Part shown: piece after piece, positions 27,967 through 59,623 of the stretch
How positions within the stretch are numbered: the stretch's first letter is position 1
How the letters are laid out: each line of letters opens with the position of its first letter
NCBI GenBank assembly: GCA_963652495.1
Contig: CAVJTU010000005.1
Coordinates: forward strand, 1,982-65,981
DNA: 64,000 bases
Direction: 5' to 3'
DNA from: an uncultured Oscillospiraceae bacterium
GTDB taxonomy: Bacteria > Bacillota > Clostridia > Lachnospirales > Lachnospiraceae
Program-made: the position numbers and the translations under genes
The notes under the pieces: generated by a model
Databases searched by the model: none
Seen by the model: only the letters and a program-made list of their open reading frames with translations
What the model was told of the DNA's origin: nothing

Positions 27967-28093
27967 GCGGTGAGATGAGTTGCTTTTACGAGGCGGAACG
28001 TGTGGGAGCGGGCTTACGCAGTATCTAAGACAAAAAGGTGTGTAAAAGGTGCCGCGGGAACAAGTGACGCCGACAAAACAATCGTCGAACCGC
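27967..28093 (+). repeat. Structured repeat family B (long rod hairpin)
   Basis: gcggt..gatga..ttgctttt-acga..gac-aaaacaa.tcgtc..accgc; colinear with 36283-36434. Confidence 0.65.
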
Positions 28094-28204
28094 CTTGTTG
28101 AACTATCGGGTTACACCAAAGGGATTGTCATTTCCATGAAAACGTGCTAAGATTGGAATGCCGGTTCCTAGACCCGGACAAAATGATTTGACAGGACAAC
28201 GCAT

Positions 28205-29530
28205 ATGGATTTATTTGATTATATGAGAGAAACGCAGCAAAAGGAGTCTCCTCTTGCCTCGCGTATGCGCCCAAAGACGCTCGACGAAGTGGTTGGACAA
28301 AAGCACATCATTGGAAAAAACAAGATGCTGTACCGCGCAATCAAGGCTGATAAGCTTAGTTCTGTTATCTTTTACGGCCCTCCGGGAACCGGAAAGACAA
28401 CGCTTGCGATGGTGATTGCCAACACGACCAGTTCGGAATTTACTCAGCTAAATGCAACAGTTGCCGGGAAAAAGGATATGGAAGATGTGGTAAAGCGTGC
28501 GAAGGATTTACAGGGCATGTATGGCCGCAGAACCATCCTTTTTATTGATGAGATTCACCGATTCAATAAAGGACAGCAGGATTATCTGCTTCCTTTTGTG
28601 GAAGACGGAACCATCATTTTGATCGGTGCGACGACTGAGAACCCATATTTTGAGGTTAATCCGGCTTTGATTTCCAGATCAATCATTTTTGAACTGCATA
28701 ATCTGGAAAAAGAGGATATAAGAGAGCTGATTGAGCGCGCCGTGCGTGATCCGGTGCGCGGTATGGGAAGCTATCATGCGGTATTAGAGGCAGATGCCGC
28801 TGAGTTTTTGAGCGACGCAGCAAATGGCGATGCGCGTGCGGCATTAAATGGAATCGAGCTGGCGGTGCTGACGACGGATCGCAGTGAGGACGGCTTGATT
28901 CATATCACACTTGAGACAGCACAGGAGTGCATCCAAAAGCGTGCAGTGCGCTACGATAAGAGTGGTGACAATCATTATGATACGATCAGCGCATTTATCA
29001 AGAGTATGCGCGGTTCGGATCCGGATGCTGCTGTCTATTATCTGGCGCGGATGCTGTATGCAGGTGAGGATATCAAATTTATCGCAAGGCGTATCATGAT
29101 CTGTGCGTCGGAGGATGTCGGGAATGCCGATCCGCAGGCACTTGTCGTGGCGGTGGCTGCATCACAGGCTGTTGAGCGTATCGGTATGCCGGAGGCGCAG
29201 ATTATTTTGTCTCATGCTGCTACTTACGTAGCGTGTGCGCCAAAGAGCAATGCAGCATGTGTGGCAATCTCAGAAGCGATGGATTACGTGCAAAATCATA
29301 AGACACCGCCGATCCCGGATCATTTAAAGGATGCGCATTATAAAAGTGCAGGCAAGCTCGGTCATGGAGACGGATACAAGTATGCACACAATTATCCAAA
29401 CCACTATGTCAAACAGCAATATTTGCCGGATACCGTGGAAAATGAGCATTTTTATCATCCATCGGAGAATGGATATGAAAAGACTATTGTGCAGCACTTG
29501 ACAAGAATCCGTAAAGAGGCAGAGGAATAA
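28205..29530 (+). CDS. rarA: Replication-associated recombination protein A (RarA/MgsA)
   Basis: PLASRMRP, GPPGTGKT, FIDEIHRFNK, GATTENP, SAFIKSMRGSD. Confidence 0.96.
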   Translation: MDLFDYMRETQQKESPLASRMRPKTLDEVVGQKHIIGKNKMLYRAIKADKLSSVIFYGPPGTGKTTLAMVIANTTSSEFTQLNATVAGKKDMEDVVKRAKDLQGMYGRRTILFIDEIHRFNKGQQDYLLPFVEDGTIILIGATTENPYFEVNPALISRSIIFELHNLEKEDIRELIERAVRDPVRGMGSYHAVLEADAAEFLSDAANGDARAALNGIELAVLTTDRSEDGLIHITLETAQECIQKRAVRYDKSGDNHYDTISAFIKSMRGSDPDAAVYYLARMLYAGEDIKFIARRIMICASEDVGNADPQALVVAVAASQAVERIGMPEAQIILSHAATYVACAPKSNAACVAISEAMDYVQNHKTPPIPDHLKDAHYKSAGKLGHGDGYKYAHNYPNHYVKQQYLPDTVENEHFYHPSENGYEKTIVQHLTRIRKEAEE

Positions 29531-29606
29531 GGCAGGAAAGTATCGGTAGAAAGACCGATTGTGACAGTGAGGACGGATAGACAAAAGTAGGATACAGGAG
29601 AAGAAT

Positions 29607-31391
29607 ATGGACGACAAACGAATTAGCACACTACGAGCAATCATGAAGAGCGAAGGAATTGATTATTATTATATTCCGACAGCAGATTTTCATGAGTCCG
29701 AATATGTTGTAGACTATTTTAAGGCAAGAAAATATATGACTGGATTTACCGGTTCGGCAGGTGTTGCCGTGATCGGTCCGGACGAGGCATGGCTGTGGAC
29801 AGATGGACGTTATTTCATTCAGGCAGCTGCGCAGATTAAAGGCTCTGGCTTTGGGCTGATGAAGATGGGACAGGAAGGCGTTCCGACTGTGATGCAATAT
29901 TTAGAGGAAAAGCTTCAGGAGGGAGAATGCATCGGTTTTGATGCGAGAGTGGTTAATACGACAGATGCAGGCGAGTTTGCCAAGATTGCAGCAAAGAAGC
30001 ACGGAAGCTTAAAGACAGATAAGGATCTTGCAGATGAAGTGTGGACAGACCGTCCGGTGCTCATTCATCAGCCAGCCGATATTTTAAAGGAAGAGTTCAG
30101 TGGTGAATCTACTGCATCCAAGCTTGCCCGCGTGCGAAAGAAGATGGAAAAAGAGGATGCACAGTATCATATCGTAAGTACACTGGATGATATTGCGTGG
30201 ATCTTAAATGTCAGAGGCGATGACATTCCGCATGTTCCGGTTGTGCTGTCTTTCCTTATAATCGGAAAAGAGAATGCAATGTGGTTTGTCGAGGAGAACG
30301 CACTTAGCGATGCAATTAAGGCAATGGCAGCAGAGTGCGGCGTCACCATTCGTCCATATGAGGAAGTTTATGCCTATGCAGCGACCATCCCAGAGCACAG
30401 CACTGTTCTTCTTGACAAGAGAAAGGTAAATTATCGCATCACAAATGCATTGTCGGAAACCATTCATATTGTAGATAAGGCAAATCCGTCGCAGCTGATG
30501 AAGGCCATCAAGAATGAGATCGAGTTAGAGAATACCAGAAAGGCTCATCTGCTTGACGGCATTGCTGTAACGAAGTTTATGTATTGGTTAAAGAAGAATG
30601 TCGGAACGATTCCAATGGATGAGGTAAGTGTATCGGATTATCTGCAAAGCCTTCGCGCACAGATGGAGGGCTATCGTGATATCAGCTTTGATACAATCGC
30701 AGGCTACAATGCAAATGCAGCGATGATGCATTATAAGGCAGAGCCAGAGACCGCAGCAAAGCTAGAGCCGCAGGGTATGCTTTTGGTTGATTCCGGCGGA
30801 CATTATGACACTGGAACAACCGATATCACAAGAACCTTTGTGCTCGGACCGATTTCCGATATCCAGAAGAAGCACTTCACAATGGTAGTAAAAAGCAACA
30901 TGAATCTGGCAAATGTGCGCTTCCTCTATGGCTGCAACGGTATTTGCCTTGATGTGATCTGCCGTGAGCCAATCTGGAAGGAGAATCTGGATTACCAGTG
31001 CGGAACCGGACATGGTGTGGGTTATCTGTTAAATGTCCACGAGGGGCCAAACAGCTTCCGCTGGCAGTATCGTCCGGGTTTTGACGCACCGTTTGAGGCC
31101 GGTATGGTAACAACCGATGAACCAGGTATCTATTTGCAGGATCAGTACGGAATCCGTACCGAGAATGAGTTAATTTGTGTTAAGGGCGAGAAGAACCAGT
31201 ACGGTCAGTTTATGGGATTCGAGAACATTACTTACGTTCCGATCGATCTTGATGGCATTGACAAGCAGTATCTGAATGCAGAGGATGTAAAGCAGCTCAA
31301 CGATTATCACAAGATGGTATATGAGAAGATTTCTCCGTACATGACACCAGAGGAGAATGAGTGGCTGAAGGAGTATACGAGAGCAATCTGA
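29607..31391 (+). CDS. Aminopeptidase P (Xaa-Pro) family
   Basis: TGFTGSAG, WTDGRY, DSGG, TDITRT, GHGVG..VHEGP, EPGIY. Confidence 0.94.
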   Translation: MDDKRISTLRAIMKSEGIDYYYIPTADFHESEYVVDYFKARKYMTGFTGSAGVAVIGPDEAWLWTDGRYFIQAAAQIKGSGFGLMKMGQEGVPTVMQYLEEKLQEGECIGFDARVVNTTDAGEFAKIAAKKHGSLKTDKDLADEVWTDRPVLIHQPADILKEEFSGESTASKLARVRKKMEKEDAQYHIVSTLDDIAWILNVRGDDIPHVPVVLSFLIIGKENAMWFVEENALSDAIKAMAAECGVTIRPYEEVYAYAATIPEHSTVLLDKRKVNYRITNALSETIHIVDKANPSQLMKAIKNEIELENTRKAHLLDGIAVTKFMYWLKKNVGTIPMDEVSVSDYLQSLRAQMEGYRDISFDTIAGYNANAAMMHYKAEPETAAKLEPQGMLLVDSGGHYDTGTTDITRTFVLGPISDIQKKHFTMVVKSNMNLANVRFLYGCNGICLDVICREPIWKENLDYQCGTGHGVGYLLNVHEGPNSFRWQYRPGFDAPFEAGMVTTDEPGIYLQDQYGIRTENELICVKGEKNQYGQFMGFENITYVPIDLDGIDKQYLNAEDVKQLNDYHKMVYEKISPYMTPEENEWLKEYTRAI

Positions 31392-31583
31392 AAGTGTTAC
31401 AGTTCACGCGTCATGCGTTGTAGATATAAAAAGGAACTTCAATGCTTTGGCAGGCAAAAGGAGTTCCTTTTTATCCATTTTTATTACCCTGACTTTATAC
31501 ACAAAAGATTTTTTGTATATGTCAAAAAAACACATTATTTGTTATAATAACAAATGTTGAAAGACAAAAAGGAGGAAGTGGAC

Positions 31584-33083
31584 ATGGCTTCATTAGTTGA
31601 AAACGCACAGCATAAAGTAGAAAGAAAAGCTTTTGAGATAATGATCAATGGTATTGTTGGTAAGTTGACCAAGACAGACGATGTCGCAAAAAGACAGGAA
31701 ACATTTCTGAGTCTTATTGACAAGGCGGAGGCTTTCTGGGGAGATGGCACAGATAAGGCGACACTGGATAAGGTTCGAGAGTATATGAAGAATCCGGAAA
31801 ACAGATGGATGAAGTTTTTGAACCGTGTTCTGGATGAGACAAATCCAAACTATGCGAAGAAATTCCTTTTGAATTTGGGATATGAAGCATTTTTCCGTGG
31901 AACAAAGACAATCCGAGCAAACCGAGAAAAGTATAATTGCAATATTCCGTGGCTGATCCTGTTTGACCCGACCGATGCATGCAACATGCACTGCGTAGGA
32001 TGCTGGTCTGGTACATATGGTCACAAGAACAGCATGTCATACGAAGATATGGACAAGATCGTTACACAGGGTAAGGAACTTGGAACGTACCTTTACTTTA
32101 TGACAGGTGGAGAACCTACCGTTCGCAAGGCGGATATTTTAAAACTTGCTGAAAAGCATAATGATTGTATGTTTGGTCTTTTCTCAAACTCCACTTTGAT
32201 TGATGATGCATTCTGTCAGAAGATTGTAGAGCTTGGAAATATCACATTCCTTCTTTCCATTGAAGGAACACCTGAGACAAATGACGGTCGTCGCGGTGAC
32301 GGACATTACGCAGCGGTTATAAAGGCAATGGATCTTTTGAAGAAATATGGTATCGTATTCGGCACTTCGATCTGCTATACTAGAGCGAATGTAGAGGCCG
32401 TTACCGATGAGAAGTTCTTACGTTTCATCGCGGACAAGGGCGCACGTTTCGGATTTTATTTCCATTATATGCCAATCGGACAAAATGCAGCGCCGGAACT
32501 GATGCCGACATTAAAGCAGCGTGAAGAGATCATAAAGAAGATTCGCTGGGTTCGTACCGGAGACAATGATATCGGATTTTTCCCTATGGATTTCCAGAAT
32601 GACGGAGAATTTGTTGGCGGATGTATTGCTGGTGGACGTAATTACTTCCATATCAATGCACAGGGCGATGCAGAGCCTTGCGTATTTATCCACTTCTCGG
32701 ACTCCAATATCCATGACAAGTCAATTCTTGAGATGCTGCAGAGCCCATTGTTCAAGGCATATCATGAGGGACAGCCATTTAACAGAAATCATCTGCGTCC
32801 ATGTCCAATGCTTGAGAATCCAGATTTTTTAAGAGAAATGATCAACAAGACTGGTGCGAAGGGAACGAATGCGGAGGCAGAGGAGACCGTTGAGCATCTT
32901 TGTGCGAAGTGTGACCGCTATGCAGAAGAGTGGGGACCTGTTGCTGATCGTATCTGGTCGGAGCAGAAGCATAAAAAGCTTCCTTATGAGAATTATACAG
33001 AAGAAAAGAGAGAACATCCAGAGCTTGCAGCATTCGAGCATGCAGACGGATCAAATGGACTTCGAGATGAGGACATCCAGTAA
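31584..33083 (+). CDS. Radical SAM protein with SPASM/twitch-like C-terminus
   Basis: CNMHCVGC, TGGEP, GCIAGG..PC..PCP..CAKC. Confidence 0.92.
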   Translation: MASLVENAQHKVERKAFEIMINGIVGKLTKTDDVAKRQETFLSLIDKAEAFWGDGTDKATLDKVREYMKNPENRWMKFLNRVLDETNPNYAKKFLLNLGYEAFFRGTKTIRANREKYNCNIPWLILFDPTDACNMHCVGCWSGTYGHKNSMSYEDMDKIVTQGKELGTYLYFMTGGEPTVRKADILKLAEKHNDCMFGLFSNSTLIDDAFCQKIVELGNITFLLSIEGTPETNDGRRGDGHYAAVIKAMDLLKKYGIVFGTSICYTRANVEAVTDEKFLRFIADKGARFGFYFHYMPIGQNAAPELMPTLKQREEIIKKIRWVRTGDNDIGFFPMDFQNDGEFVGGCIAGGRNYFHINAQGDAEPCVFIHFSDSNIHDKSILEMLQSPLFKAYHEGQPFNRNHLRPCPMLENPDFLREMINKTGAKGTNAEAEETVEHLCAKCDRYAEEWGPVADRIWSEQKHKKLPYENYTEEKREHPELAAFEHADGSNGLRDEDIQ

Positions 33084-33110
33084 TTGGTTCTTGTCACCAT
33101 TGGCTTTGAG

Positions 33111-33140
33111 AATGAGGCTTCTTCGGAAGTCTCATTTTTT
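33111..33140 (+). terminator. Intrinsic terminator
   Basis: aatgaggcttc-ttcg-gaagtctcatt followed by a T run. Confidence 0.85.
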
Positions 33141-33255
33141 GTTGTATCGTAGAGTGTTGACGCGGTAAAAAAAGTCTGATATACTTGTGTCCAACGGCGG
33201 TTAACCGTCTAACATAGCAAAATGGCTGCTTCTGCAGCAGAATGTGAGGAAAAGG

Positions 33256-34743: not shown

Positions 34744-34835
34744 GTGGCAGCTGCTCAGAATAAAGCAAAATGAGCGTTTTGCGAACAGCAGCAGATGGGG
34801 GATTGAATGTCCCCCATTTCATTATAATGATGTTT

Positions 34836-34916
34836 GATACCAGATTGCTACGTGCTTTGCACTCTCGCAATCTTCAAAAACATTCGGAATCTTGCTCATG
34901 TTTTTGGCGTGGTATC
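34836..34916. repeat. Family C: 81-bp MITE/REP-like element with 7-bp terminal inverted repeats
   Basis: GATACCA...TGGTATC enclosing agattgc/gcaatct and aaaaacat/atgttttt hairpins; partial copy at 49378-49397. Confidence 0.7.
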
Positions 34917-34926
34917 TTTTTATATA

Positions 34927-35610
34927 TTACGACATATATTGTCTTGAATATAAGTATTCATGATTCATACAATGAATCTCGTATGCACCACCAGAAATAC
35001 CAAGCAATTCTGGTGTAATGCTTTGCGCCATCTGTGCTGCATCTTCAAGCTTTTCAAAATATTCATTTAATATGCGCTGACCTGCCATCTGGCTTAGCGG
35101 AACAAGCTTCACAGCATTATTTACAATCGCTGAAATGACATTGTAGCCATACATAATAAGAAGCTGCTGCACTGGAAATTCCAATTCGGCTGCATAAATT
35201 CCAAGCGCAATCGGGTGACAGCCTGCCGCTTTCTTTTCTTTTACCATCTTGCTGTACCAGCAAAGTCCCGGCGTACAATCTCCAATCGCTTCTCTGGCTT
35301 TTATATAACGGCTGCACATTCGGATGCTTCCCTGGCGAATCTCTTTTGCGCTTTTCATCGCTGCAGCAACCTGATCCAGATATAAAATCATTTCATGGTC
35401 CGTATAGTACTTATACGCCAATGCTAACAGGCCAAGATCATTATATGGAAAGATTTGCAGAAAGCCTTCAAGATACGCACTTAATCCTTTTTCTGACCGT
35501 ATGCGATCTCGCACTACATAATCTTCAAGTCCATTCGATAACGTGAATGCTCCAATCGGAAAAAATGCATCGACAGACTGCAATAATTTCAGGAAACTGC
35601 CATTTTCCAT
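34927..35610 (-). CDS. ureF: Urease accessory protein UreF
   Basis: LLQSVDAFFPIGAFTLSNGLE, AVKLVPLSQ, HE..YSR.YMS. Confidence 0.93.
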   Translation of the reverse strand: MENGSFLKLLQSVDAFFPIGAFTLSNGLEDYVVRDRIRSEKGLSAYLEGFLQIFPYNDLGLLALAYKYYTDHEMILYLDQVAAAMKSAKEIRQGSIRMCSRYIKAREAIGDCTPGLCWYSKMVKEKKAAGCHPIALGIYAAELEFPVQQLLIMYGYNVISAIVNNAVKLVPLSQMAGQRILNEYFEKLEDAAQMAQSITPELLGISGGAYEIHCMNHEYLYSRQYMS

Positions 35611-35704
35611 ACACTACTCCTCCTGCGCAATTGTTTTCCTCAGCCTCATAAATTACCGTAAAACCACTCCCACCCAGACAAACCTGCTACAGACAAGGGG
35701 CAAC

Positions 35705-36256
35705 TCAACAAACTTCATTACCATGCTCATGGTGATGGGTATGTTCATGCTCGTGATCACGATGACCTTCGTGTCCATGTACTTCCTCATGGTGATGTTC
35801 TTCATGGTCATGCGTATGCGAGTGTCCATGCGCATGGCATACGGTAAAGTGTGTAAACTTAGCCAGCTTCTTTTCCGGTGCAAATCCAAGCTTTGCAAGA
35901 TAAGCAAATGTTGGCTCATCATATGGTACACTCACTTCATTTTCACCAATGGATAAAGACAAATGACGATTTCCAAGCTCAAAGCACAGACGACCCATTT
36001 CTCTCATGGTATGTACATGCACAACAGTAAGCTCACTTGGAAGAATTTCAACCACGATCACACGGCTGTCATCTGCATACAGCACATCACCATCCTCAAT
36101 CGGATCCGAAATGCGAATTCCAATTTCTTCTTTGCCTGCAGTAGTCTTGCGAAGCAGCTTTTTCTCTGCCTCATACCATTCAATCCCGACGGTGTCGATT
36201 TGTCTTTCTCCAATCGGATATGTCTTTCTATTTCCAATGATTTTTTCTACGATCAT
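35705..36256 (-). CDS. ureE: Urease accessory protein UreE with His-rich tail
   Basis: DGDVL, ELGNRH; 19 His in the C-terminal tail. Confidence 0.93.
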   Translation of the reverse strand: MIVEKIIGNRKTYPIGERQIDTVGIEWYEAEKKLLRKTTAGKEEIGIRISDPIEDGDVLYADDSRVIVVEILPSELTVVHVHTMREMGRLCFELGNRHLSLSIGENEVSVPYDEPTFAYLAKLGFAPEKKLAKFTHFTVCHAHGHSHTHDHEEHHHEEVHGHEGHRDHEHEHTHHHEHGNEVC

Positions 36257-36282
36257 AACAGTCTCCTAATGCGTAAGTAAAT

Positions 36283-36434
36283 GGCCCCGAGGTGAATGTG
36301 CTTTACGAGACGGGACGTTGTAGCGGGCCCGTTGTCAAAATACACTTACGTTAAAAACATGTAGTGGGGACCCGCGGAGTTGGGCCCGTCGACAAAGTCA
36401 CTTCACCGAGTGGACCTTCGTAACCTCCCGGGTC
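36283..36434 (+). repeat. Structured repeat family B, most complete copy
   Basis: ggtgaa.tgcttt-acga-gacggg..gcgggccc..gggacccgc..cccgtc-gac-aaag.ttcacc-gagtggaccttcgtaac. Confidence 0.7.
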
Positions 36435-36437
36435 GCT

Positions 36438-38150
36438 TCAGAAAAGAAAGTACCTCTGCGCCATCGAAAGCTTTTCTGCCGCCTCACACGTAATCAGCTT
36501 GCCATCGACACGCACTTCATAATTTTCCGGGTTGACCTGAATATCCGCAATGACATCATTATTTTTCATGTCCTTCTTTCCGATATTGCGGCAATTATGA
36601 ACAGCCAATACCTGTCTGTGCAGCGACAGCTTCTCTTTGATGCCATCGTCATAGGCTGCCTTTGACACAAATGTAATGCAGCTGTTTGTTCTGGCAAGCC
36701 CGTATGCGCCAAACATCTTCGTATAGACAACCGGCTGCGGTGTCGGAATGGATGCATTGGCATCGCCCATCTTAGATGCAATGATAAATCCGCCCTTTAT
36801 AATCATATCCGGCTTTGCGCCAAACATTGCCGGATTCCACAGCACCAGATCTGCCACCTTGCCCACTTCAACCGAGCCAACATAATCAGAGACACCGTGC
36901 GTGATCGCCGGATTGATTGTATACTTTGCGATATATCGCTTCACGCGGAAATTATCATTTCGCTCACTATCCTCCGGGAGCGGGCCTCTTTGCTTTTTCA
37001 TCTTATCTGCTGTCTGCCAGGTACGAATGATGACCTCGCCGACGCGTCCCATCGCCTGAGAGTCTGAGCTCATCATGGAAAAAATACCCATATCATGCAG
37101 CACATCCTCTGCTGCAATCGTTTCCGGACGGATTCTCGAATCCGCAAATGCAATATCCTCCGGCACCTTTTTGTCTAAGTGATGGCAAACCATCAGCATA
37201 TCCAGATGCTCGTCAAGCGTATTCTTTGTAAATGGCATTGTCGGATTTGTGGAAGAGGGAAGCACATTTGGAAAAGCCGCCGCGCGGATGATATCCGGTG
37301 CATGGCCGCCGCCCGCTCCCTCGGTATGATACGTGTGAATCGTGCGCCCCTTAAAGGCAGCAACGGTATCCTCGACAAATCCAGCCTCATTTAACGTATC
37401 GGTATGGATTGCGGCCTGCACATCATACTTATCGCACATCGTTAAGCATGCGTCAATTGCCGCCGGTGTGGAGCCCCAATCTTCGTGAAGCTTCATACCG
37501 CAGGCACCTGCCTTTATCTGCTCGGCAACCGTATCCACATTTGCCGAATTGCCTTTTCCCAAAAATCCCAGATTGACAGGAAGCTCCTCTGCTGCGCAGA
37601 TCATCTGCTCAATATTGAAGCGTCCCGGCGAGCACGTCGTCGCATTCGTGCCATCTGCAGGGCCTGTTCCTCCTCCAATCATCGTGGTGACACCGCTGTA
37701 GAGTGCCGTCTCGGCCTGTGTCGGGCTGATAAAATGAATATGCGTGTCAAGACCGCCCGCCGTAACGATCAGACCTTCTCCGGCAATCACCTCTGTGGAA
37801 GCTCCGATGATCAGATTTTCATCCACGCCATCCATAATCTGCGGATTTCCGGCTTTTCCGATTCCGCAAATTTTTCCATCCTTAATTCCGATATCTGCCT
37901 TTACAATACCCCAATAATCCACGATTACGGCACTCGTAATAACCGTATCCGGACAATCCTCATCTGCCACCGTACACGACTGACCCATGCCGTCGCGGAT
38001 TGACTTTCCACCGCCGAACTTGCTCTCGTCGCCATAAATGGCATAATCCTTTTCCACTTCAATTAAAAGTGACGTGTCGGCAAGGCGAATGCGATCACCC
38101 ACTGTTGCGCCATACATATCTGCATATTTTTCTCTGCTGATCTTACTCAT
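36438..38150 (-). CDS. ureC: Urease alpha subunit
   Basis: [42 protein letters not shown]. Confidence 0.99.
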
Positions 38151-38835
38151 CACACGTCACCCCCTTAAAGCCTTTTTCCTTTGCCGCCTTCAGCGCATGC
38201 GCCTTTACGGCTGGATCATCCATCTTTCCTTCGACCAATCCGTTCAAGCCATGACCCTCACGACTTCCGCCGATCTCAACAAGATTCACTCGCTTTGTCT
38301 CGCCAGGCTCAAAACGTACCGCCGTGCCTGCCGGGATATCAAGACGCATCCCATAAGCAAGATTTCGGTTAAATTCAAGCGCTTTATTCACCTCAAAGAA
38401 ATGGAAATGGGAACCAACCTGAATCGGGCGGTCTGCCGTGTTGGACACCGCAATCTGTGCCGTATCCTTCCCGACATTTAATTCGATCTCACCCGCCTCG
38501 GTGATTACCTCGCCCGGAATGAGATTGCCATTTCCACAAATCGGATCATGTACCGTGACTAGCTTCGTGCCGTCCGGGAAGGTCGCCTCAAGCTGAATCT
38601 CATGAATCATCTCCGGCACACCGTCCATCACATCTTCACTCGTCAGCATCTGCGCACCCATGCTCATAAGCTCCGTTACACTGTGACCATCCCTCGCCAG
38701 CTCTAAAAGCTCTGCGCTGATATAGGCGATCGCTTCCGGATAATTTAATTTTAATCCGCGCTGCTTTCTTTCCTTGGCCAACTGCCCTGCCAAATGAAGC
38801 ATGAGCTTATCGGTCTCTCTTGGTGTTAAACGCAT
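38143..38835 (-). CDS. ureAB: Fused urease gamma+beta subunit
   Basis: [26 protein letters not shown], then [25 protein letters not shown] in one frame. Confidence 0.96.
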
Positions 38836-38858
38836 ATTTCTCTCCTCCATAAATTCAA

Positions 38859-38919
38859 CGGTCCCTTCACCGACAAAGTCACTCGTCGAAGAATCTTTCG
38901 TAAAACTTGCAGGACACCG
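38859..38919 (+). repeat. Family B partial copy
   Basis: 13-nt identity cgacaaagtcact with 36400-36412, plus ttcgtaa; closed by cggt/accg. Confidence 0.6.
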
Positions 38920-40477: not shown

Positions 40478-40510
40478 AGAAATCAACCTGCCTTTCTATT
40501 TTCTCTTTTT

Positions 40511-40561
40511 AACGCCCACTCAGCGAAGCAGCTTTGTCAAAAAGCAGATTCGCTTTTGAAC
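40511..40561 (-). repeat. Family B short copy in inverted orientation
   Basis: Reverse complement reads agcgaa.tgcttt..gacaaag..ttcgct-gagtgggcg. Confidence 0.6.
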
Positions 40562-41686
40562 TTACATTGCTTCCTTTGCCTGTGTCTGACGCTGTCTTGT
40601 CTTTCCTACTCTTTTTCTCTTGTTTAAAAGTGCCGGAATCTGATCTCTGACAATGCCGACAATTCCGCCCTTGAAGAACAGAATCGTAATAATAAACAGA
40701 AGACCGATGATATACTGCCAGCTCTCTGCCATGCTTCCGGAGCTTAAATTGTACTCGCACAGATTGATCAAAAATGCGCCGATTACAGCACCGACCAACG
40801 TTCCTCTGCCGCCGATTGCTACCCAGATTACCATGGTAATGGAGTAGGTGATGGACATCTGTGTCGGTGTGATGGAGCCATTGAAATTGACAAACAGCGC
40901 ACCGGCAATTGCTGCAAAGATTGCAGACAATACATAGACAAAATTTTTATAATTGCTGACACGGTAGCCTGAGAAATATGTGCGATTCTCTCCATCTCGA
41001 ATTGCGATAAGAAGCTTTCCAAACTTACTGCGCACAAGAAATGCTGAGACAACATAGATCACCGCTAATATCGCAAGTGCAATGTAAAATAATACAATCA
41101 AATTTCCCTGATGATCGGCTCCGCGCAGACTTCCAAGCACAGACTGAATCTGGTTGATGCCGACATCTCCGTTTGTATATGGGGAAAGCGCGATGAAAAC
41201 AGAGTATGCTGCCCATGTCAATGCCTGTGAGATAATGGAAAAATAAACTCCCTTGACACGGTTCTTAAAGATAAAGTAACCGATCAGTCCTGATACGAGA
41301 ATCGGAACAATCACAATCATAAGAAACGTTCCGACAGGTGACAAAAACGGCTTCCAGATCAGCGGAAGCTCGCTGAGTCCGCCAACCTGCATGAAATCCG
41401 TGATCTGTCCGTTTGTCTGGACGAGTTTTAAATACATGCCCATGCCATATGCGCCAAGGCAAAAGTAAAGTCCATGACCCAGGCTAAGGATTCCGGTATA
41501 GCCCCAGATCAAGTCAAGTCCGATGGCTACAATGGCAAAGGAAATACACTTTCCAAGGAATAAAACAGTCGTACTTTTTACGGCTCCGCCAAGCAAAAGA
41601 AGCGGCATGACGGCAAGTATAAGCACAATCAGCGTAAAACAGACATGATAGCCATTTTTTTGAATACGTTTTGCGATTGATTTCAT
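40562..41686 (-). CDS. urtC: Urea ABC permease UrtC
   Basis: LDLIWGYTGILSLGH, GVYFSIISQA, AIRDGE.R, WVAIGGRGTL. Confidence 0.93.
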   Translation of the reverse strand: MKSIAKRIQKNGYHVCFTLIVLILAVMPLLLLGGAVKSTTVLFLGKCISFAIVAIGLDLIWGYTGILSLGHGLYFCLGAYGMGMYLKLVQTNGQITDFMQVGGLSELPLIWKPFLSPVGTFLMIVIVPILVSGLIGYFIFKNRVKGVYFSIISQALTWAAYSVFIALSPYTNGDVGINQIQSVLGSLRGADHQGNLIVLFYIALAILAVIYVVSAFLVRSKFGKLLIAIRDGENRTYFSGYRVSNYKNFVYVLSAIFAAIAGALFVNFNGSITPTQMSITYSITMVIWVAIGGRGTLVGAVIGAFLINLCEYNLSSGSMAESWQYIIGLLFIITILFFKGGIVGIVRDQIPALLNKRKRVGKTRQRQTQAKEAM

Positions 41687-42583: not shown

Positions 42584-42715
42584 GAAGCTTCTCCTTTCTC
42601 TTGATCAATAGCCCAATTAACCGACTTCTCGACAGACAATCTACAATACAAGCCTGACCGCTTCGCTTTACGGCATTGTATTTGTAGATGTCTGCTCTCG
42701 AAGTCTTATTTTTAT

Positions 42716-44827: not shown

Positions 44828-44926
44828 CCTGACAAAACAGACTTTTCTACCCTAATTTTCCGTCATGCTGCCCATTCACAGACAGTGTGGACCGCCATTT
44901 TAACCGAATCCAGTAAGTTTCCTTCT

Positions 44927-45682
44927 TCAATTGCGAATATCCGCCTGACTTTTTCGGTGCTGCGCCGGTGTATCGCCTGTATATTCCTTAAAGAGCTTCG
45001 TGAAATAATCGGTTGTTTTATATCCGAGACGGTCGCTTATCTCATAAATGCGCTCATCCGTATGAGCGAGCAGATACTTTGCATATTCCATCTTATAGCG
45101 CATCGCGAACGTATTAAAGTTTTCATTCATCTGTCGCTTGAACAGCTTGCCAAAATAGTCATGGCTCAGCATAAATTCATCGGAAATATCTTTCAGATTT
45201 AAATCGACATGCTCTGAAAAATAAGCCATCACTTTTTTTGCAAAACCGGATGACGTATCTGCGCCGCAGACGCGAAAAATTTCCTCTGTAATGTTTTGCT
45301 CTCTCTCATCGTCAAGCTCTTCGCGCACATTTTGCAGACACTCGCGAAGCTCCTCCTCTGTCACAGGCTTCAGCAAATAGTCCATCGCGCCCAGCTTCAT
45401 TCCCTGTCTGACATAATCAAATTCATTATAATTGCTGGCAATGATGCGCGGAGCTGTAATTCCGCGCTCCTTTAACTCCTTTAAAAATTCCAGTCCGTTC
45501 ATGACAGGCATCATCACATCCACCAGATACAGATCAAACTGTTTTGTCTGCATAATTGACAATGCTTCTCTTCCATTTAAGGCCTGTCCGGCAATCGCAA
45601 AGCCTTCCTCCTCCCAGACCTTCATTTTCATATAAAGGCTTTGGTTTGTCCGATCATCCTCTACGATCAAAATCTGATACAT
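44927..45682 (-). CDS. Response regulator (REC + AraC HTH)
   Basis: ILIVEDD, VDVMMP, YLLKP; C-terminal YF.KLFK..G.TP. Confidence 0.92.
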   Translation of the reverse strand: MYQILIVEDDRTNQSLYMKMKVWEEEGFAIAGQALNGREALSIMQTKQFDLYLVDVMMPVMNGLEFLKELKERGITAPRIIASNYNEFDYVRQGMKLGAMDYLLKPVTEEELRECLQNVREELDDEREQNITEEIFRVCGADTSSGFAKKVMAYFSEHVDLNLKDISDEFMLSHDYFGKLFKRQMNENFNTFAMRYKMEYAKYLLAHTDERIYEISDRLGYKTTDYFTKLFKEYTGDTPAQHRKSQADIRN

Positions 45683-53231: not shown

Positions 53232-53402
53232 TTTCCAGCTCACTCGCGCCACTTCCAATTCGCAAAACCGCACGTTCCGTGCTTATCGCTGCTTCGCAGC
53301 TGTTTTGCTCATTGAGTGGCGCTCCCTTCGTCCGTGCAGTCTGGAAAATCCTCGTGCAAGCACGGGATTCTTCCAGACATGTACGGACGAGTGAGCTGGA
53401 AA
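53232..53402. repeat. 171-bp branched palindromic element with 15-bp perfect terminal inverted repeats
   Basis: tttccagctcactcg/cgagtgagctggaaa enclosing nested hairpins. Confidence 0.8.
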
Positions 53403-53453: not shown

Positions 53454-53526
53454 TGCGCCTCCAGGGGCTCGAACCCTGGACACCCTGATTAAGAGTCAGG
53501 TGCTCTACCAACTGAGCTAGAAGCGC
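53454..53526 (-). tRNA. tRNA-Lys(CTT), CCA not encoded
   Basis: GCGCTTC acceptor stem, TAGCTCAGTTGGTAGAGC D arm, CCTGA-CTCTTAA-TCAGG, GGTTCGAGCCC; promoter TTGACA-17-TAGTAT at 53586-53558. Confidence 0.98.
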
Positions 53527-53926
53527 TTATTTGTTCGTCACTCACGCGACATTCAGTATACTATCACAGTGCAATGGATTTGTCAACAGTTTTTTGAAAA
53601 AAATTGAAAAAATATTTTAAACATGCATTTTCGACAGTTTCGGCCCATGGAGTTGCTTTTTCACGGATTGTTTTTCTTTTCGCTGCCTTTGTTTTTTTTC
53701 GTTTCTTTCTCGTTATACCTCTTTCCATCAGAGCCGTTCCTTCTGCCGCAGCAGGCAAAAGGACAGTCTGCACATGCTTTGGCGGCAGTCTGAAAGCAGC
53801 GGTACAGGTGAAGGAGTGTGCAGTCAAAGAATGGACAACAGGTGTGGCGGATGATAAATTTACGAAATGGATGACAGCGCATAGAAATCTCCAGACAAAT
53901 ACTACTGTTACAGTATATGCAGTCAA

Positions 53927-54013
53927 GCGGATATTCGCAATCCGCTTCGCTGCGTAGCTCTGCACCGGATAGCTGCTTCACAGCTTATCAGGACTTACTT
54001 GATTCAGTTAAAA
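53927..54013 (+). repeat. Family A intermediate-length copy
   Basis: gcggatattcgcaatccgcttcgc..atagctgcttcacagcttatcagg-acttacttgattcagttaaaa. Confidence 0.85.
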
Positions 54014-54074
54014 AATATATGGGTAAAAATGAGTCGGAAAAAATGGAGACAGACGTATCAGTCTGTCCCCAACA

Positions 54075-54749: not shown

Positions 54750-54759
54750 GGCAGCCCTC

Positions 54760-55383
54760 TCAGTCCTTCATGCGCTCTGCGACGATCGCTTCGATCATCT
54801 CTGCGCACTGCTGATAGGTATAACGGCTTGTATCAAGAACCAGATCATAATTTCTTGCATCCAGCCACTCTTTCCCGGTGAAATGCTTGTAGTAATCACT
54901 CCTATACTTATTCGTCTTTGCAATACGGTCTGCGGCATCCTTCTCGCTGCACTGCATGATCTCCATCTCATGAGCCAGACAATCTTTATAATTGGAATGA
55001 ACAAATACACGTACAAGATAAGGATAGTCCTTTAATACATAATCTCCGCCTCTTCCGATTACAATAAAAGAGTTATCTTTGATAAGTTCCTTCATAACCT
55101 TTGCTTGATAAGCAAATAAGTCATCATTTGTGGCATATTCGCTCTTCTCCGGCAGGATGTGCTCTCCATTGTAAACCCTCTTAAATGCATTAAACAGGGG
55201 ACTCTTTTTCATATCCTCATCGGCAGCTGCAAAGACAGCTTCATTAATACCGCTGTTTCCGGCAGCCAGACGAAGCAGCATGCGGTCATAATATTCGATT
55301 CCATAATGAGCAGAAAGAATCTTTGCAATGGAAGTACCGCCTGCACCGCAGGTTCTGGTAATTGTGACAGCAAAATGTTTCAT
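54760..55383 (-). CDS. Cytidylate kinase-like family protein (second paralog)
   Basis: VTITRTCGAGG, VIGRG, R..YY, YDLVLDT. Confidence 0.88.
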   Translation of the reverse strand: MKHFAVTITRTCGAGGTSIAKILSAHYGIEYYDRMLLRLAAGNSGINEAVFAAADEDMKKSPLFNAFKRVYNGEHILPEKSEYATNDDLFAYQAKVMKELIKDNSFIVIGRGGDYVLKDYPYLVRVFVHSNYKDCLAHEMEIMQCSEKDAADRIAKTNKYRSDYYKHFTGKEWLDARNYDLVLDTSRYTYQQCAEMIEAIVAERMKD

Positions 55384-55581
55384 AATACAAACCTCCCTCA
55401 TGTGAAATTTCTACCTATTAAAGTATATATGAAACATGCGTAAAAGTCAACGAAAGGCAAAAAAAGAGAAAGAAAATTGACAAAAAACAAATGATGAGTT
55501 TGGATTTTTTTTAAAACAATTCGACAATGACAAATTTATAACGATATACTATAATGGTGATGCAAAAAAGGAGGCATGCAT

Positions 55582-55893
55582 ATGAATCAGATCATTCAAA
55601 GATTAAGTGAAGTAGAAGCAGCTGCGACTTCAATTATTGATGAAGCTGCTGCAAAGAAAAAGCAGATGGCCAAAGACCAGGATGCCAGAATTGCAGCCTT
55701 TGAAAAGCAGGTTCATGAAGAGACTGACAAAAAGATCAGCGAGCAGCAGGCAGTGCTTGAGGCTAAGATCGAGGAAGAACTCAAGGCTCAGAAAGAAGAA
55801 CTTGAAAGACAGCTCGCCCACATGGATCGAACTTATGAGGAAAGCCATTCGGCGATCGCCAAGCAGCTGCTGGCAAAGATTACAGCACGATAA
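55582..55893 (+). CDS. V/A-type ATPase peripheral stalk subunit (G/H-like)
   Basis: Charged coiled coil, first gene of the operon, GGAGG RBS. Confidence 0.75.
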   Translation: MNQIIQRLSEVEAAATSIIDEAAAKKKQMAKDQDARIAAFEKQVHEETDKKISEQQAVLEAKIEEELKAQKEELERQLAHMDRTYEESHSAIAKQLLAKITAR

Positions 55894-55943
55894 GTTTTGC
55901 AGTACCATTTATTTATTGTGCCGAAAAAATCTTATGAAATGGG

Positions 55944-56999
55944 GTGATTACTATTTCTGGTATCTTATCTTACAGCGGTATCAGTGCAAAAGCCCGGGCC
56001 ATGGGAGGAAAGCTTCTGAACCGGGAACAGTATGAACAGTTAGCATCCTGTGCCAGTGTCGGAGAAGCAGTTGCCTATTTGAGGCAGTTTTCTGAATATG
56101 AGCCGCTGCTGAGGGACTTTGATGAGCATGACAGCCACAGAGGAATGATCGAGGCGACGCTCATGGGCTCGCTCTACAACGATTACAATCGTCTGTACAG
56201 CTTTGCCAGAGGTGAGCAGAGAGCATTTTTGGATTTTTACTTTCTGCACTATGAGGCAGCATATTTAAAAGGTTGCCTTAGAAAGGTCATTTCCGGTCAG
56301 AGTATCCCAGAGGATCAGGCATACCGCAGGGTGTTTTTTGAGCGTCATTCGCATCTGGACACGGATGTGATTGAGAACAGCACAACGGTGGACGAATTGA
56401 TAGAAGCGTTAAAGAATACGCCTTTTTTCTATCCGCTTGATGCAATACGCCATACCGAAGAGCCAAGCCTGTTTGACTATGAGGGCAGTCTTGACGTATT
56501 TTATTTTAGCTATGTCTGGAAGCAGAAGGATAAGCTTCTCAAAGGAAAAGAAAGACAGATCATTGCGGACAGCTATGGAAGACGTATCGATCTGCTGAAT
56601 ATCCAGTGGCTAATGCGTGCGAAGAAAAACTATCGGATGACAGCGCCAGAGCTGTATGCGATGGTGGTTCCGAGCTATTATCATTTAAAACCGGATGACA
56701 TCAAGGCCATCGTAGAGGCACCTTCCTATGAGGAAGCACGAGCGTTGATTGTAAATGGCTACTACGGTCAGAAATACGCAGACGATTTTGCTGAGATTCG
56801 TTCTGTGGAAAAGATGTACACCGAGCTGGTTGAGCATATTTATGAACTCGCCGGCAGAAAAAATCCATATTCAGTTGCACCGCTCAATGCGCTGCTGTAC
56901 CGCAAAGAGCATGAAATTACACGTATCACATCCATTATCGAGGGGATCCGCTATGGAATCCCATCATCTAAGCTGATGAAATATGCAGTAATGGAGTGA
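55944..56999 (+). CDS. ntpC: V/A-type ATPase subunit C
   Basis: AKARAM..KLL, IDLLNI..RAK, E..I..IIEGIRY; operon context. Confidence 0.88.
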   Translation: MITISGILSYSGISAKARAMGGKLLNREQYEQLASCASVGEAVAYLRQFSEYEPLLRDFDEHDSHRGMIEATLMGSLYNDYNRLYSFARGEQRAFLDFYFLHYEAAYLKGCLRKVISGQSIPEDQAYRRVFFERHSHLDTDVIENSTTVDELIEALKNTPFFYPLDAIRHTEEPSLFDYEGSLDVFYFSYVWKQKDKLLKGKERQIIADSYGRRIDLLNIQWLMRAKKNYRMTAPELYAMVVPSYYHLKPDDIKAIVEAPSYEEARALIVNGYYGQKYADDFAEIRSVEKMYTELVEHIYELAGRKNPYSVAPLNALLYRKEHEITRITSIIEGIRYGIPSSKLMKYAVME

Positions 57000-57116
57000 G
57001 CATGTGGTTGAAGCATGTGCAAAAAAAAGTAAGTCGATTGTAACGTTTGGCAAACCAACAGCACATATGAAGGTACTGAACAGTTACAGTTTATTTAGGA
57101 AAGTCGAGGGGTAACC

Positions 57117-59042
57117 ATGATAGAAAAAATGCAATTCTTAAGCATTACGGGACCCAAAGATGATATTGACAGAGCAATCGAGCAGCATTTGTCCAAGTAT
57201 GAGTTTCAGCTGGAAAGCACAATGACTGAGCTTTCCGAGACAGCCGGACTTAAGCCGTTCATTGAGATCAATCCGTATCGCGAGACTTTAAACAAAGCAG
57301 CCGCGCTGATGTCCGCAATGGGTGCTGAGGAGACAAAGACGGATGGTTCCATGGATGTAAAAGAGGCTGTTGAGTTGATTAACAGTGCAGATGCACAGAT
57401 CAAGGAAGCAGAAAAGGTTCTTGATAAGTTAAACAAGGACAAGGAAACTCTTCAGGAGTTAATGGATCAGATCACTCCGTTTAACAACCTCGGATATGAT
57501 ATTCACAAGCTGCTCGCATTTAAGTCCGTAAAGTACCGTTTCGGAAGAATACCGGTCGATTACGTGGACAAGCTTATGAAGTACACGTACGAAAATGTCA
57601 ATACGATCTTTTACGAATGCAATAAGGATCAGGATTATGTATGGGGCGTTTATTTCAGCCCGAAAAATGAGATCGCCAAGATTGATGCTGTTTATAAGGC
57701 ACTTCACTTTGAACGACTCCATCTCCCGGATGAGTATGAGGGTACTCCGGAGGAGGCGATGACGCGTCTGACAAAGAATATTACAGATCTGGAAGCGCAA
57801 ATAAAGAAAAAGCAGGGCGAGATCGATCATGTTCTTTCTTCAAAGAAGGATAAGATCCTTGCTGCAGTGGCAAAGCTTAAGAAATTCTCCAAAAACTTTG
57901 ATATCAGAAGACTGGCAGCAGTCACAGGTGCAAATAAGAAGAACTTCTATATCATTTGTTTCTGGATGACCGAGCGCGATGCAAAGAAGCTCCAGGCAGA
58001 GCTTGATTCTGATCCGAATGTGATCTGCATCGTACACGATGACAACAAGAAACGCGTCTCACAGCCGCCTGTAAAGCTTCGCAACCCGAAGCTGTTCAAG
58101 CCATATGAGATGTATATCCGTATGTATGGTCTTCCAAACTATAATGAGTTTGACCCGACCATCTTCGTCGCATTGACCTATTCCTTCATCTTCGGATGGA
58201 TGTTTGGTGATGTCGGACAGGGATTGCTGCTCGTCATTGGTGGATTTTTGCTGTATCACTTCAAGAAGATGAATCTTGCAGCCATCATCAGTATGGCTGG
58301 TGTGTTCTCCACCTTCTTTGGATTCATGTTCGGAAGTATTTTTGGTTTTGAGGATGTGATAGAACCGATATGGTTACGTCCAATGAGCAATATGACGGAT
58401 CTTCCGATGATCGGCCGACTGAATACGGTATTTATTGTAGCCGTGGCATTTGGTATGGGACTGATTCTTTTGACTATGGTAATTCACATTATCAATGCAG
58501 CGAAAAATCACAGTCTCGGTGATATGTGCTTCGATACAAACGGAATTGCCGGTCTGGTATTCTATGGACTGCTTGTATTTGCCATCGTGATGCTGATGAC
58601 AGGTCACAGCCTTCCGGGCGGCGCACTGCTTGTTGTATTGTTCATCATACCGCTCATCTGTATTGCATTTAAGGAGCAGCTGACCGATCTTTGTGAGAAG
58701 AAAAAACCGGCCGAGAAGACGGGTGCGGTTATGATCGTCGTACAGGCACTGTTCGAGCTGATCGAGGTACTTCTTAGCTACTTCTCAAATACCATCTCGT
58801 TCGTGCGTATCGGTGCATTCGCTGTCAGCCATGCAGCCATGATGGAGGTTGTCATGATGCTTGCAGGAGCAGAGAGCGGCACACCGAATATTTTAGTCGT
58901 TATTCTCGGAAACCTCTTTGTGTGCGGCATGGAGGGATTGATCGTTGGTATTCAGGTACTTCGTCTGGAATATTACGAGATGTTCTCCCGTTTCTACAAG
59001 GGCGATGGAAGAGAGTTCGAGCCATATAATGCAAAGCAGTAA
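57117..59042 (+). CDS. ntpI: V/A-type ATPase subunit I (a)
   Basis: YGLP.Y.EFDPT, MFGDVGQG, SNTISFVR, LRLEYYE. Confidence 0.95.
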   Translation: MIEKMQFLSITGPKDDIDRAIEQHLSKYEFQLESTMTELSETAGLKPFIEINPYRETLNKAAALMSAMGAEETKTDGSMDVKEAVELINSADAQIKEAEKVLDKLNKDKETLQELMDQITPFNNLGYDIHKLLAFKSVKYRFGRIPVDYVDKLMKYTYENVNTIFYECNKDQDYVWGVYFSPKNEIAKIDAVYKALHFERLHLPDEYEGTPEEAMTRLTKNITDLEAQIKKKQGEIDHVLSSKKDKILAAVAKLKKFSKNFDIRRLAAVTGANKKNFYIICFWMTERDAKKLQAELDSDPNVICIVHDDNKKRVSQPPVKLRNPKLFKPYEMYIRMYGLPNYNEFDPTIFVALTYSFIFGWMFGDVGQGLLLVIGGFLLYHFKKMNLAAIISMAGVFSTFFGFMFGSIFGFEDVIEPIWLRPMSNMTDLPMIGRLNTVFIVAVAFGMGLILLTMVIHIINAAKNHSLGDMCFDTNGIAGLVFYGLLVFAIVMLMTGHSLPGGALLVVLFIIPLICIAFKEQLTDLCEKKKPAEKTGAVMIVVQALFELIEVLLSYFSNTISFVRIGAFAVSHAAMMEVVMMLAGAESGTPNILVVILGNLFVCGMEGLIVGIQVLRLEYYEMFSRFYKGDGREFEPYNAKQ

Positions 59043-59132
59043 AATCAGAGTATTGAGAGAAACGATAAAGTTGAACTGTAAAGTCAGAGAAAAACACATT
59101 TACAAAGCAAAGATAAGAGGAGGATTTTCATC

Positions 59133-59570
59133 ATGTTAGTTAAAATCACATTATTTGCAGCACTGGTATTAAGCATCGTCGTTCCATTCGCATATTTCTT
59201 AAGCGGAACAAAGAATAAGGCACGTTATAAGCTCACAATTGGCACAAATGCAGCAGCATTCTTCGGCATTATGTTAGTCGCTTGCGGTTTCATGTTCAGC
59301 GGAAACGCACAGGCAGCTGAGACAGCAGCAGAGACTGTAAGCGCAGCAGGCGGTCTTTCCACAGGTATGGGTTATCTGGCAGCCGCTCTTGTAACCGGTC
59401 TTTCCTGTATCGGTGGCGGTATCGCCGTAGCAAGTGCAGCAAGCGCAGCATTAGGTGCAATCAGTGAGGATTCTTCCATTCTTGGTAAGTCCTTGATCTT
59501 CGTAGGTCTGGCAGAGGGTGTCTGCCTGTATGGTCTGATCATTTCCTTCATGATTCTTGGTCAGCTGTAA
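59133..59570 (+). CDS. ntpK: V/A-type ATPase proteolipid K (c)
   Basis: IGGGIAV..IFVGLAEGVCLYGL. Confidence 0.93.
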   Translation: MLVKITLFAALVLSIVVPFAYFLSGTKNKARYKLTIGTNAAAFFGIMLVACGFMFSGNAQAAETAAETVSAAGGLSTGMGYLAAALVTGLSCIGGGIAVASAASAALGAISEDSSILGKSLIFVGLAEGVCLYGLIISFMILGQL

Positions 59571-59584
59571 AAAGAGTAAATATT

Positions 59585-59623
59585 GTTCGCGAGTGGGCGC
59601 TTCGTAACAATTCCCCCGCGAGC
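59585..59623 (+). repeat. Family B minimal module
   Basis: gttcgcg-agtgggcgc-ttcgtaac..cgcgagc. Confidence 0.55.

Follow-up and report, generated by a model that had tools for sequence, protein, structure and literature searches.

Family B is a non-coding, structured repeat interspersed between the genes of a 64,000-nt stretch of DNA (referred to here as the window), which comes from an uncultured Oscillospiraceae bacterium (assembly GCA_963652495.1, contig CAVJTU010000005.1, positions 1,982 to 65,981) and carries, among others, urease, urt and V-ATPase genes. An original prediction, made from the letters of the window, described five copies, mostly placed right after stop codons, as an RNA or single-stranded DNA (ssDNA) family that is either a mobile substrate of an HUH-type enzyme or an mRNA-processing module. 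Here, we will describe these copies and their counterparts in the genome of the window (termed G000; 3.06 Mb in 158 contigs) and in draft assemblies of relatives (numbered from G001), and then discuss how such an element may multiply. The family is genuine: it is a repeat interspersed in the genomes of one Lachnospiraceae clade, constrained in its structure and not catalogued before, and likely a sister of the Clostridiales-1 family (RF01699).

Copies in the window

Copies were scored with a covariance model, R1, built from 39 copies of family B, with a match cut-off of E <=0.01 and a high-scoring class of at least 100 bits. All five predicted sequences lie where they were described and are homologous, but only two are intact, and those reported to begin at 38859, 40511 and 59585 are deletion remnants, because the alleles of relatives keep other or full pieces of the element. 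The first intact copy (27949-28114, plus strand; inner subtype A; 141.9 bits as a training copy of R1) is flanked by genes for a polysaccharide deacetylase and a RarA-like ATPase and has a calculated RNA folding energy of -44.2 kcal/mol (z -2.26). From its 5' end it is composed of a left flank motif, the left arm of the outermost helix P1 (27966-27971), a tandem GA step, helix P2, an ACGA/GAC loop, helix P3, the inner rod, the right P1 arm (28090-28093) and one tail unit that ends near 28116. Remnants are found at this site in G004 and G010, and no copy at the position in G001, G002, G005, G008 and G009. In the second intact copy (36267-36436, plus strand; inner subtype B; 150.4 bits, likewise a training copy), P1 at 36283-36288 pairs with 36410-36416, the tail stops just short of the ureC stop and the folded strand is antisense to the urease mRNA. 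The ureC-ureE site holds a full copy with a tail array in G010, one tail unit in G004, a degenerate unit in G008 and nothing in G003. Copies elsewhere in G001, G003, G004 and G008 match the ureC copy at 97-99% identity over ~130 nt, more closely than the urease genes, which are 81-94% identical.

The remnant at 38858-38919 (plus strand; 13.7 bits, E 0.037, scored as 38835-38917) is made up of the right half and tail, preceded directly by the beginning of the left P1 arm, and abuts the urtE stop; G004 is identical at this site, G010 keeps the left arm, and G003 and G008 are empty. An internally deleted remnant at 40506-40561 (minus strand, sense of the mRNA; 10 bits, E 0.35, scored as 40492-40579), made of P2 and the TTT/AAA helix with a short closing loop, abuts the urtC stop, and other fragments of a minus-strand copy are found there in G004 and G010. 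Among the V-ATPase genes, the remnant at 59583-59626 (plus strand) retains outer GTTCGCG/CGCGAGC arms, the right P1 arm and the start of the tail and has no R1 match up to E 10; G011 has a full element at this site, G010 the same remnant, G002 a bare hairpin, and G001, G004 and G008 are empty. The predicted distances to stop codons are correct (0-3 nt from the ureC, urtE and urtC stops and 14 nt past the open reading frame (ORF) ending at 59570). The names ureC, urtE and urtC were confirmed, whereas the ORF at 59133, called ntpK in the prediction, adjoins the gene for V-ATPase subunit F and had no NCBIfam match at 1e-15.

A further remnant, missed in the prediction, joins the left flank motif to a tail unit at 27124-27170 (minus strand; 9.3 bits, E 0.56; also a match to the tail pattern), with a longer version in G004 and a left arm in G008, and two loose tail units lie at 27040-27068 (minus strand), where G004 has similar units. 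The remnant lies inside the ORF at 27077-27910, whose TTG start at 27077 is probably too early, and relatives vary freely there. Of two possible degenerate members, the sequence at 59975-60050, assigned through its ATGAG/GCGAAT arms and not through an Rfam run, is a piece of a Clostridiales-1-type element, which is full at the same site in G008, and the sequence at 35650-35705, which was assigned to no family, has no second copy anywhere in G000. The latter is a single-copy GC-rich insert after the ureE region that, among four relatives, is shared with G004 only.

Structure and covariation

Starting from 29 motif-anchored copies, a profile search of G000 converged at 65 matches and gave none in the reversed genome. 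The element is ~160 bases long, and in the consensus and most single folds its core forms an unbranched rod of ~130 nt, which consists, from the outside in, of P1, the tandem GA step, P2, a bulged helix ending in TTT/AAA, the ACGA/GAC loop, P3, an inner helix of one of three types and an AT-rich apex. It is bordered by a left flank like TCGTAACC and a tail like TTCGTAAnnCTWCCGGGTWRC; alternative enclosing arms, GTTCACGG/CCGTGAAC, are held in common with a sister family, and both arms occur in 19 of 150 cases. The sequence of P1 is free, with 66 different arm pairs in 103 parsed copies, most of which still pair.

In the 39-copy alignment, 93.8% of the cells are paired, compared with 40-58% in slid controls, and both partners vary in 14 of the 19 pairs; the observed values were reached by 0 of 500 shuffles on four of five measures, and on the remaining one, further pair types, by 39 of 500. 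Stems thus change their sequence yet keep pairing, as predicted. The 69 distinct copies from other genomes gave similar values (94.0% paired; again 14 of 19 pairs changed on both sides), in an alignment that was fitted to R1 and leans towards the model, and since all copies are related by descent, the pair changes are not independent events. The motifs described as fixed are so in part: TTYACRAR and GACRAA occur in 108 of 108 copies, an invariance that is partly selected for because both seeded the searches, whereas GAGTGG is found in 17 and TTCGTAA in 37 of the 108. The strand with the GA loops gives the better fold in 36 of 39 copies, as RNA and as DNA, both GA halves are retained in 92 of 108 copies, and the conserved purine mismatches lie on one strand. 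A candidate switch between the tail TCGTAAA and the inner TTTACGA showed no covariation (Fisher p 1.0) and was rejected.

The association between the two arms of one helix is strong (Cramer's V 0.81-0.98), though they lie up to 110 nt apart, and lower between P2 and the inner modules (0.33-0.49), with some neighbouring shells linked up to 0.78; the helices reassort as concentric shells. Assembly chimeras do occur (L254, L319), but they break left from right, so that the concentric pattern does not stem from them; it reflects either exchange between folded strands or removal of lopsided recombinants. The tail motif is present at least twice in 39 of 126 right flanks, at ~20-nt spacing, and in 23 of 126 cases the right-end motif is also found ahead of the left end, compared with 9 of 126 in a control window and 169 of 3000 random intergenic windows; the counts include a few near-duplicate rows. 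Terminal redundancy and tandem tails together give modest support to a circular template.

Copy number and range

R1 gave 62 matches in G000, 41 of them in the high-scoring class, of which 39 are training copies, and separate models of the arms matched at 75 left and 88 right positions, compared with 3 and 3 in a reversed control, so that remnants are common in this genome. The model therefore finds many further copies, well beyond the five originally described. Among congeners, 7 of 12 hold 13-73 copies and 5 of 12 none; the alignable non-carriers are distant, with 71-75% identity in test genes compared with 84-96% for carriers. R1 matched none of 28 other relatives and none of 150 family genomes outside the congeners (18 candidates per genome scored).

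Among the matches listed in a pattern scan of GTDB genomes, R1 confirmed loci in a few gut records; most of these carry a Lachnospiraceae title, and Anthropogastromicrobium aceti is one of the organisms named. Of 80 metagenome loci, 67 are true copies. Outside Lachnospiraceae-type records, pattern matches mostly fail R1; those that scored, on one short contig of a Bacteroidaceae bin and two contigs of an Anaerovoracaceae-titled bin, may reflect mis-binning or mislabelling. There was no blastn match among 72,556 plasmids or 50,697 phages, and a single pattern match in IMG/VR (L046) was rejected, as it has no R1 score. Comparison with Rfam found no existing family that matches the element, either in the window (at the gathering thresholds and at E up to 10) or at 20 further loci (E up to 10). 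No published description was found in a literature search that took in few subscription journals, and family words are absent from the searchable supplements of PMC2864571 and PMC8040213, both of which have unsearchable files that may bear on novelty.

Site polymorphism, orientation and nesting

For 33 of 68 copies in relatives, both flanks are syntenic in G000, where 9 of the 33 sites have a model match and 24 have none; some of the 24 are clean empty alleles (L136, L097) and some hold remnants. These differences support the predicted mobility of family B, taken to mean that copies have come and gone at many sites. At some orthologous sites, one inner module has replaced another in place, and at one (L105 and L064, corresponding to G000 C25:11608-11776) a Clostridiales-1 element in G000 takes the place of family B in two relatives. 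This site precedes a metallophosphoesterase-like gene (SbcD-like by eye).

Collapsing 199 element records gave 119 distinct sites, at which the folded strand is sense to transcription in 35, antisense in 33, between convergent genes in 15, between divergent genes in 10 and unassigned in 26. Relative to local GC skew, a proxy for the replication strand on draft contigs, 55 sites face one way and 59 the other, with 4 flat. Orientation relative to the mRNA therefore varies, as predicted, and the strand is biased towards neither transcript nor skew. Of the 68 co-directional copies, 56 are closer to a stop than to a start (median distances 29.5 and 99 nt), and the neighbouring genes are ordinary housekeeping or unrelated ones, judged by eye (249 ORFs in 152 clusters).

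Whole family B elements are found inside older ones (G000 C17:28371 and C17:31996), and sister repeats are nested inside family B copies. At two different loci (L255:2935-3180, also L270 and L297, and G000 C4:17656-17772) copies lie between duplicated 16-33-nt palindromes, which we take to resemble parS sites. Two family B copies, at G000 C132:138 and C68:12800, are adjoined or cut short by a hairpin that presumably resembles an end of the IS200/IS605 family.

Possible routes of multiplication

The reading that we prefer, although we would give it no better than even odds, is that family B is a non-autonomous mobile element whose folded single strand, probably DNA, is copied by a putative trans-acting enzyme via a probable circle. 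In this model, the enzyme would recognise and copy the element as a folded single strand, through an intermediate that is probably circular and rolling-circle-like, and new sites would arise by insertion and not only through loss from an ancestral set. The reading draws on copy numbers in the dozens, on the presence or absence of copies at orthologous sites, on the indifference of the folded strand to transcription and GC skew, and on the purine mismatches conserved on one strand, as well as on the shell-wise reassortment of helices, the tandem tails, the nesting with sister repeats and the decay of copies by deletion. An effect on neighbouring mRNAs, if any, would be a side effect. From the original interpretation this keeps a structure-selected, mobile ssDNA/RNA family and leaves the HUH substrate and the operon-tuning mRNA module without support.

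Several of the observations in this and the following two paragraphs weigh against this reading. No enzyme is consistently linked to family B among Y1 transposases, reverse transcriptases (RTs), tyrosine recombinases and IS110 (IS91, Rep, relaxases and serine recombinases were not searched). G000 has five Y1 genes, all IS200/605-like, and no copy lies near 35 Y1 loci (these five and 30 of 45 congener matches), nor was a RAYT-like gene found in G000, so that the predicted role as an HUH substrate is not borne out. The RAYT-like genes of G008 and G010 have no flanking copies and no match in G000, and such genes have no clear link to Clostridiales-1 abundance (6 of 20 genomes with at least 15 Clostridiales-1 matches, compared with 30 of 150 overall). 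RVT_1 had no match in 4 of 8 carriers, G000 included. A copy lies at 2 of the 48 RT, integrase and IS110 loci scanned with R1, both in G008 and both absent from the orthologous loci examined. ORFs flanked on both sides by repeats, read by eye, revealed no enzyme. A multi-copy partner could be unassembled, as the assemblies are drafts with insertion sequence (IS) ends at contig breaks.

Two recombinase-like proteins were noted during this search. A 190-aa tyrosine recombinase (L224:1447-3216), which consists of a catalytic domain only and is encoded divergently from a coiled-coil gene, with a conserved palindrome upstream, is present in 5 of 5 carriers tested, but it was rejected as a candidate because it also occurs in 3 of 150 element-free family genomes and has no copy beside it; a match of similar size is found in the non-carrier G005 as well. 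A 369-aa integrase-fold protein (L239:1222-2331) is conserved in G000, G008 and G010 and has degenerate-looking catalytic motifs. As to the sites themselves, there is no replication-strand bias (55 vs 59), which ssDNA transposition of the IS200/IS605 type would predict, and no general target duplication was found, a direct repeat of at least 16 nt being present in 1 of 142 flank pairs compared with 1 of 600 control pairs. Repeats of at least 12 nt, the lengths compared, show no excess at these eroded ends. Core identity reaches 86-100% at 6 of 10 orthologous sites, where nearby four-fold sites have 54-88%, a conservation that also fits selection on individual copies for a host function; at the other four the core is 69-77% identical, because modules have been replaced or deleted. 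Core conservation together with the 97-99% identity of the ureC copy to copies elsewhere fits conversion from a conserved pool, and strand-independence and frequent loss argue against a host role as the reason for the fold.

With regard to the folded form, we lean only slightly towards DNA. It is favoured because the element is independent of transcription, has no promoter-like site inside either intact copy, contains few G-T pairs (28 of 740 and 46 of 1296 cells; 3.5-3.8%) and belongs to a genome whose repeats, taken together, are ~eight-fold enriched in C-RNA-G triloops (121 in 44.8 kb vs 97 in 281 kb); GNRA (17 vs 142) and UUCG (1 vs 12) loops are not enriched in the same repeats. The GCGNAGC mini-hairpin has been described as a DNA motif, with a related RNA hairpin that is much less stable (PMC13037366). 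RNA, on the other hand, is favoured by better z-scores (-1.75 to -3.8 for the two intact copies as RNA, +0.7 to -2.0 as DNA), by the purine-rich internal loops, by the absence of replication-strand bias and by the rarity of GCGAAGC, which only 3 of the 62 matches carry on their folded strand, full-length apical loops being AT-rich. The triloop argument therefore draws mainly on sister families, and the copies within these are not independent of one another. Folded ssDNA motifs are described as not reliably separable from RNA by computation (PMC5737381).

The rival that survives best, though we consider it unlikely, is a mobile structured RNA, in which sense copies would be transcribed by read-through, processed or circularised, and reinserted either way by an RT acting in trans, much like a SINE or retrozyme. 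Random orientation fits this model, as do RNA folding z-scores that exceed those for DNA, purine-rich internal loops, tandem 3' tail units and partial terminal redundancy, and at one site (L255, L270) a young-looking insertion carries a 33-nt direct repeat on both sides in several strains. However, half of the carriers examined for RVT_1, including G000, have no match, there is no known ribozyme or other Rfam match, G-T pairs are scarce, GNRA and UUCG loops are not enriched, and no general target duplication is seen.

Somewhat less probable again is that no dedicated enzyme exists and that the host's own repair and recombination both spread family B and keep its copies alike; hairpins would break or stall replication and be repaired by ectopic gene conversion from other copies, with arm-to-arm copying making part of the covariation. 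The in-place module swaps, the nesting into older hairpins, the abundance of several unrelated-looking repeat families in G000, the single copy among 108 in which a GA mismatch has been corrected to a perfect palindrome and the fact that no enzyme was found all agree with such repair; yet arm-to-arm copying would erase mismatches, and both GA halves persist in 92 of 108 copies. Moreover, the clean empty alleles (L136, L097) lack prior homology to seed conversion, and a 95-nt inner module is nearly identical across species.

We regard a host-selected mRNA element, acting as a processing site or 3' stabiliser that tunes gene amounts in operons, as improbable. Proximity to stops (56 of 68 co-directional copies) suits it, but would also be expected from avoidance of promoters and ribosome-binding sites; likewise, cores outconserve four-fold sites at 6 of 10 orthologous sites and a long stem can form on both strands as RNA, but the conserved loops lie on the mRNA strand at only about half of the sites (35 vs 33). 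Neither intact copy contains an intrinsic terminator (a GC-rich hairpin followed by a T run). Relatives that keep this urease operon mostly lack the ureC-ureE copy (3 of 4), and an intact V-ATPase copy is found in 1 of 8. The proposed tuning of operon stoichiometry is accordingly not upheld, and it is further disfavoured because 24 of 33 syntenic sites, including urease-operon sites in relatives, have no model match. Finally, a classical miniature inverted-repeat transposable element with terminal inverted repeats, moved as double-stranded DNA by the DDE transposase of an IS in the same genome, would explain a short, non-coding, high-copy repeat with inverted arms and random orientation, and some transposases may be unassembled given the IS ends at contig breaks, but it is very improbable and already largely refuted by variable ends (66 P1 arm pairs in 103 copies), there being also no excess of flanking repeats of at least 12 nt and no left or right half found bracketing an ORF.

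Relationship to known repeats

Family B resembles REP, BIME and REPIN sequences in being extragenic, lineage-specific, present in many copies, often near stops, arranged in mosaic or tandem arrays and polymorphic between relatives, with arms that vary but stay complementary and a master sequence conserved across the lineage. Mosaic units, variable tandem arrays, variation that keeps complementarity and models based on ssDNA circles or rolling circles have been described for REP elements (PMC3333891), and a master sequence that is constant across a species for REPINs (bioRxiv 10.1101/2021.07.10.451892). REP elements are also characterised by a GTAG foot and linkage to RAYT (PMC3733652, PMC6006769). 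In a REP, the GTAG/GGAG-type tetranucleotide lies 0-2 nt from the stem foot; in contrast, no conserved tetranucleotide is found at the P1 foot of family B (alignments A1 and A2), and GTAG occurs inside the rod and in some tails. A REPIN is an inverted REP doublet of 20-40-nt hairpins with a variable spacer between them, whereas family B is one ~130-nt rod of at least four helices with purine internal loops, whose sequence varies most in the outermost arms and is conserved in the inner modules. There is also no RAYT in G000 and no copy beside the scanned Y1 genes, and the host is a Firmicute. Family B is therefore not filed as REP, because the defining REP tests fail.

The closest likeness is to Clostridiales-1, which occurs in the same genomes and at the same sites, each family being nested in the other, and which shares with family B, according to its Rfam consensus, the YGA/CGAR tandem-GA step and the 4x3 purine loop. 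RF01699 counts are 6-68 where family B is present, compared with 0-5 otherwise, and its orientation to GC skew is also random (13 vs 14, with 4 flat). The two are nevertheless distinct: RF01699, with a gathering threshold of 48 bits, gave no score up to E 10 on the family B copies of the window and 20 loci, family B is an unbranched rod and Clostridiales-1 a four-stem junction, and family B occurs in one clade only, in contrast to RF01699 with its matches in 76 of 150 family genomes. G000 contains 75 RF01699 matches, with head-to-tail trimers at C66:14688-15167 and C33:25571-26050, and the window one, at 34831-34971 (minus strand; 58.2 bits); the Rfam consensus has a 3-nt R-N-A loop. Clostridiales-1 thus behaves more like a mobile DNA repeat than a small RNA (sRNA). 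It is listed in PMC2864571 as a likely RNA without a cis role and is only named in associations in bioRxiv 10.64898/2026.05.24.727482.

Like integron attC sites, family B combines variable sequence with kept pairing, kept extrahelical bases and one better-folded strand, but it is dispersed singly and in both orientations, forms no cassette arrays and has no integrase consistently beside it. The attC RYYYAAC/GTTRRRY core was not seen in family B. IS200/IS605 elements, which are common in G000, share the feature of hairpin-recognised ssDNA mobility; unlike their derivatives, family B has no strand bias, no end similarity and no copies beside TnpA genes.

It is conceivable, though doubtful, that family B, Clostridiales-1 and at least four more families make up one superfamily of protein-free folded-ssDNA replicators in gut Clostridia, which would insert into one another's stems and swap segments shell-wise while folded, with a driver that is neither RAYT, RT, integrase nor IS110. 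REP-like repeats have been described mainly from Gram-negative bacteria with a RAYT partner. Family B, from a Firmicute, has a longer fold rich in loops and no RAYT partner that could be found, and it points to another route by which non-coding DNA multiplies in chromosomes. Family B also calls into question the cataloguing of Clostridiales-1 as an RNA, since the latter is possibly a mobile DNA repeat. As one cultured species is named in the record titles of carriers, the enzyme and the intermediate can be sought directly, and an enzyme that swaps folded single-strand segments by shape and not by sequence, if it exists, could be a useful tool. In practice, R1 serves as a clade marker, and repeats of this kind can swell the number of structured-RNA candidates reported from gut metagenomes.

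Other repeats and features of the window

Three more repeat families are represented in the window. A third structured repeat of ~21 segments, with GTTCAC/GTGAAC arms, lies at 53237-53397 (minus strand; a weak RF01699 score of 28.3 bits) and in G000 at C17:39260-39449 and on C73 and C96; repeats of this type are also found nested inside family B copies. The fourth family, a 53-segment cluster with GCGAAGC loops and ATGAG/GCGAAT arms, is found at 1392-1426, 3653-3824, 44897-44935 and 53915-54001, and a fifth, a small hairpin present at ~42625-42703 and on C7 and C23 of G000, has an apical module in common with the short subtype of family B. A match to the Rfam family 5_ureB_sRNA at 37706-37998 (plus strand), antisense within ureC and with many broken pairs, probably reflects coding similarity. 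Two paralogous ORFs of ~720 aa lie 2157 nt apart at 17124-21482, and a near-perfect 49-nt tandem duplication is found at 3259-3356.

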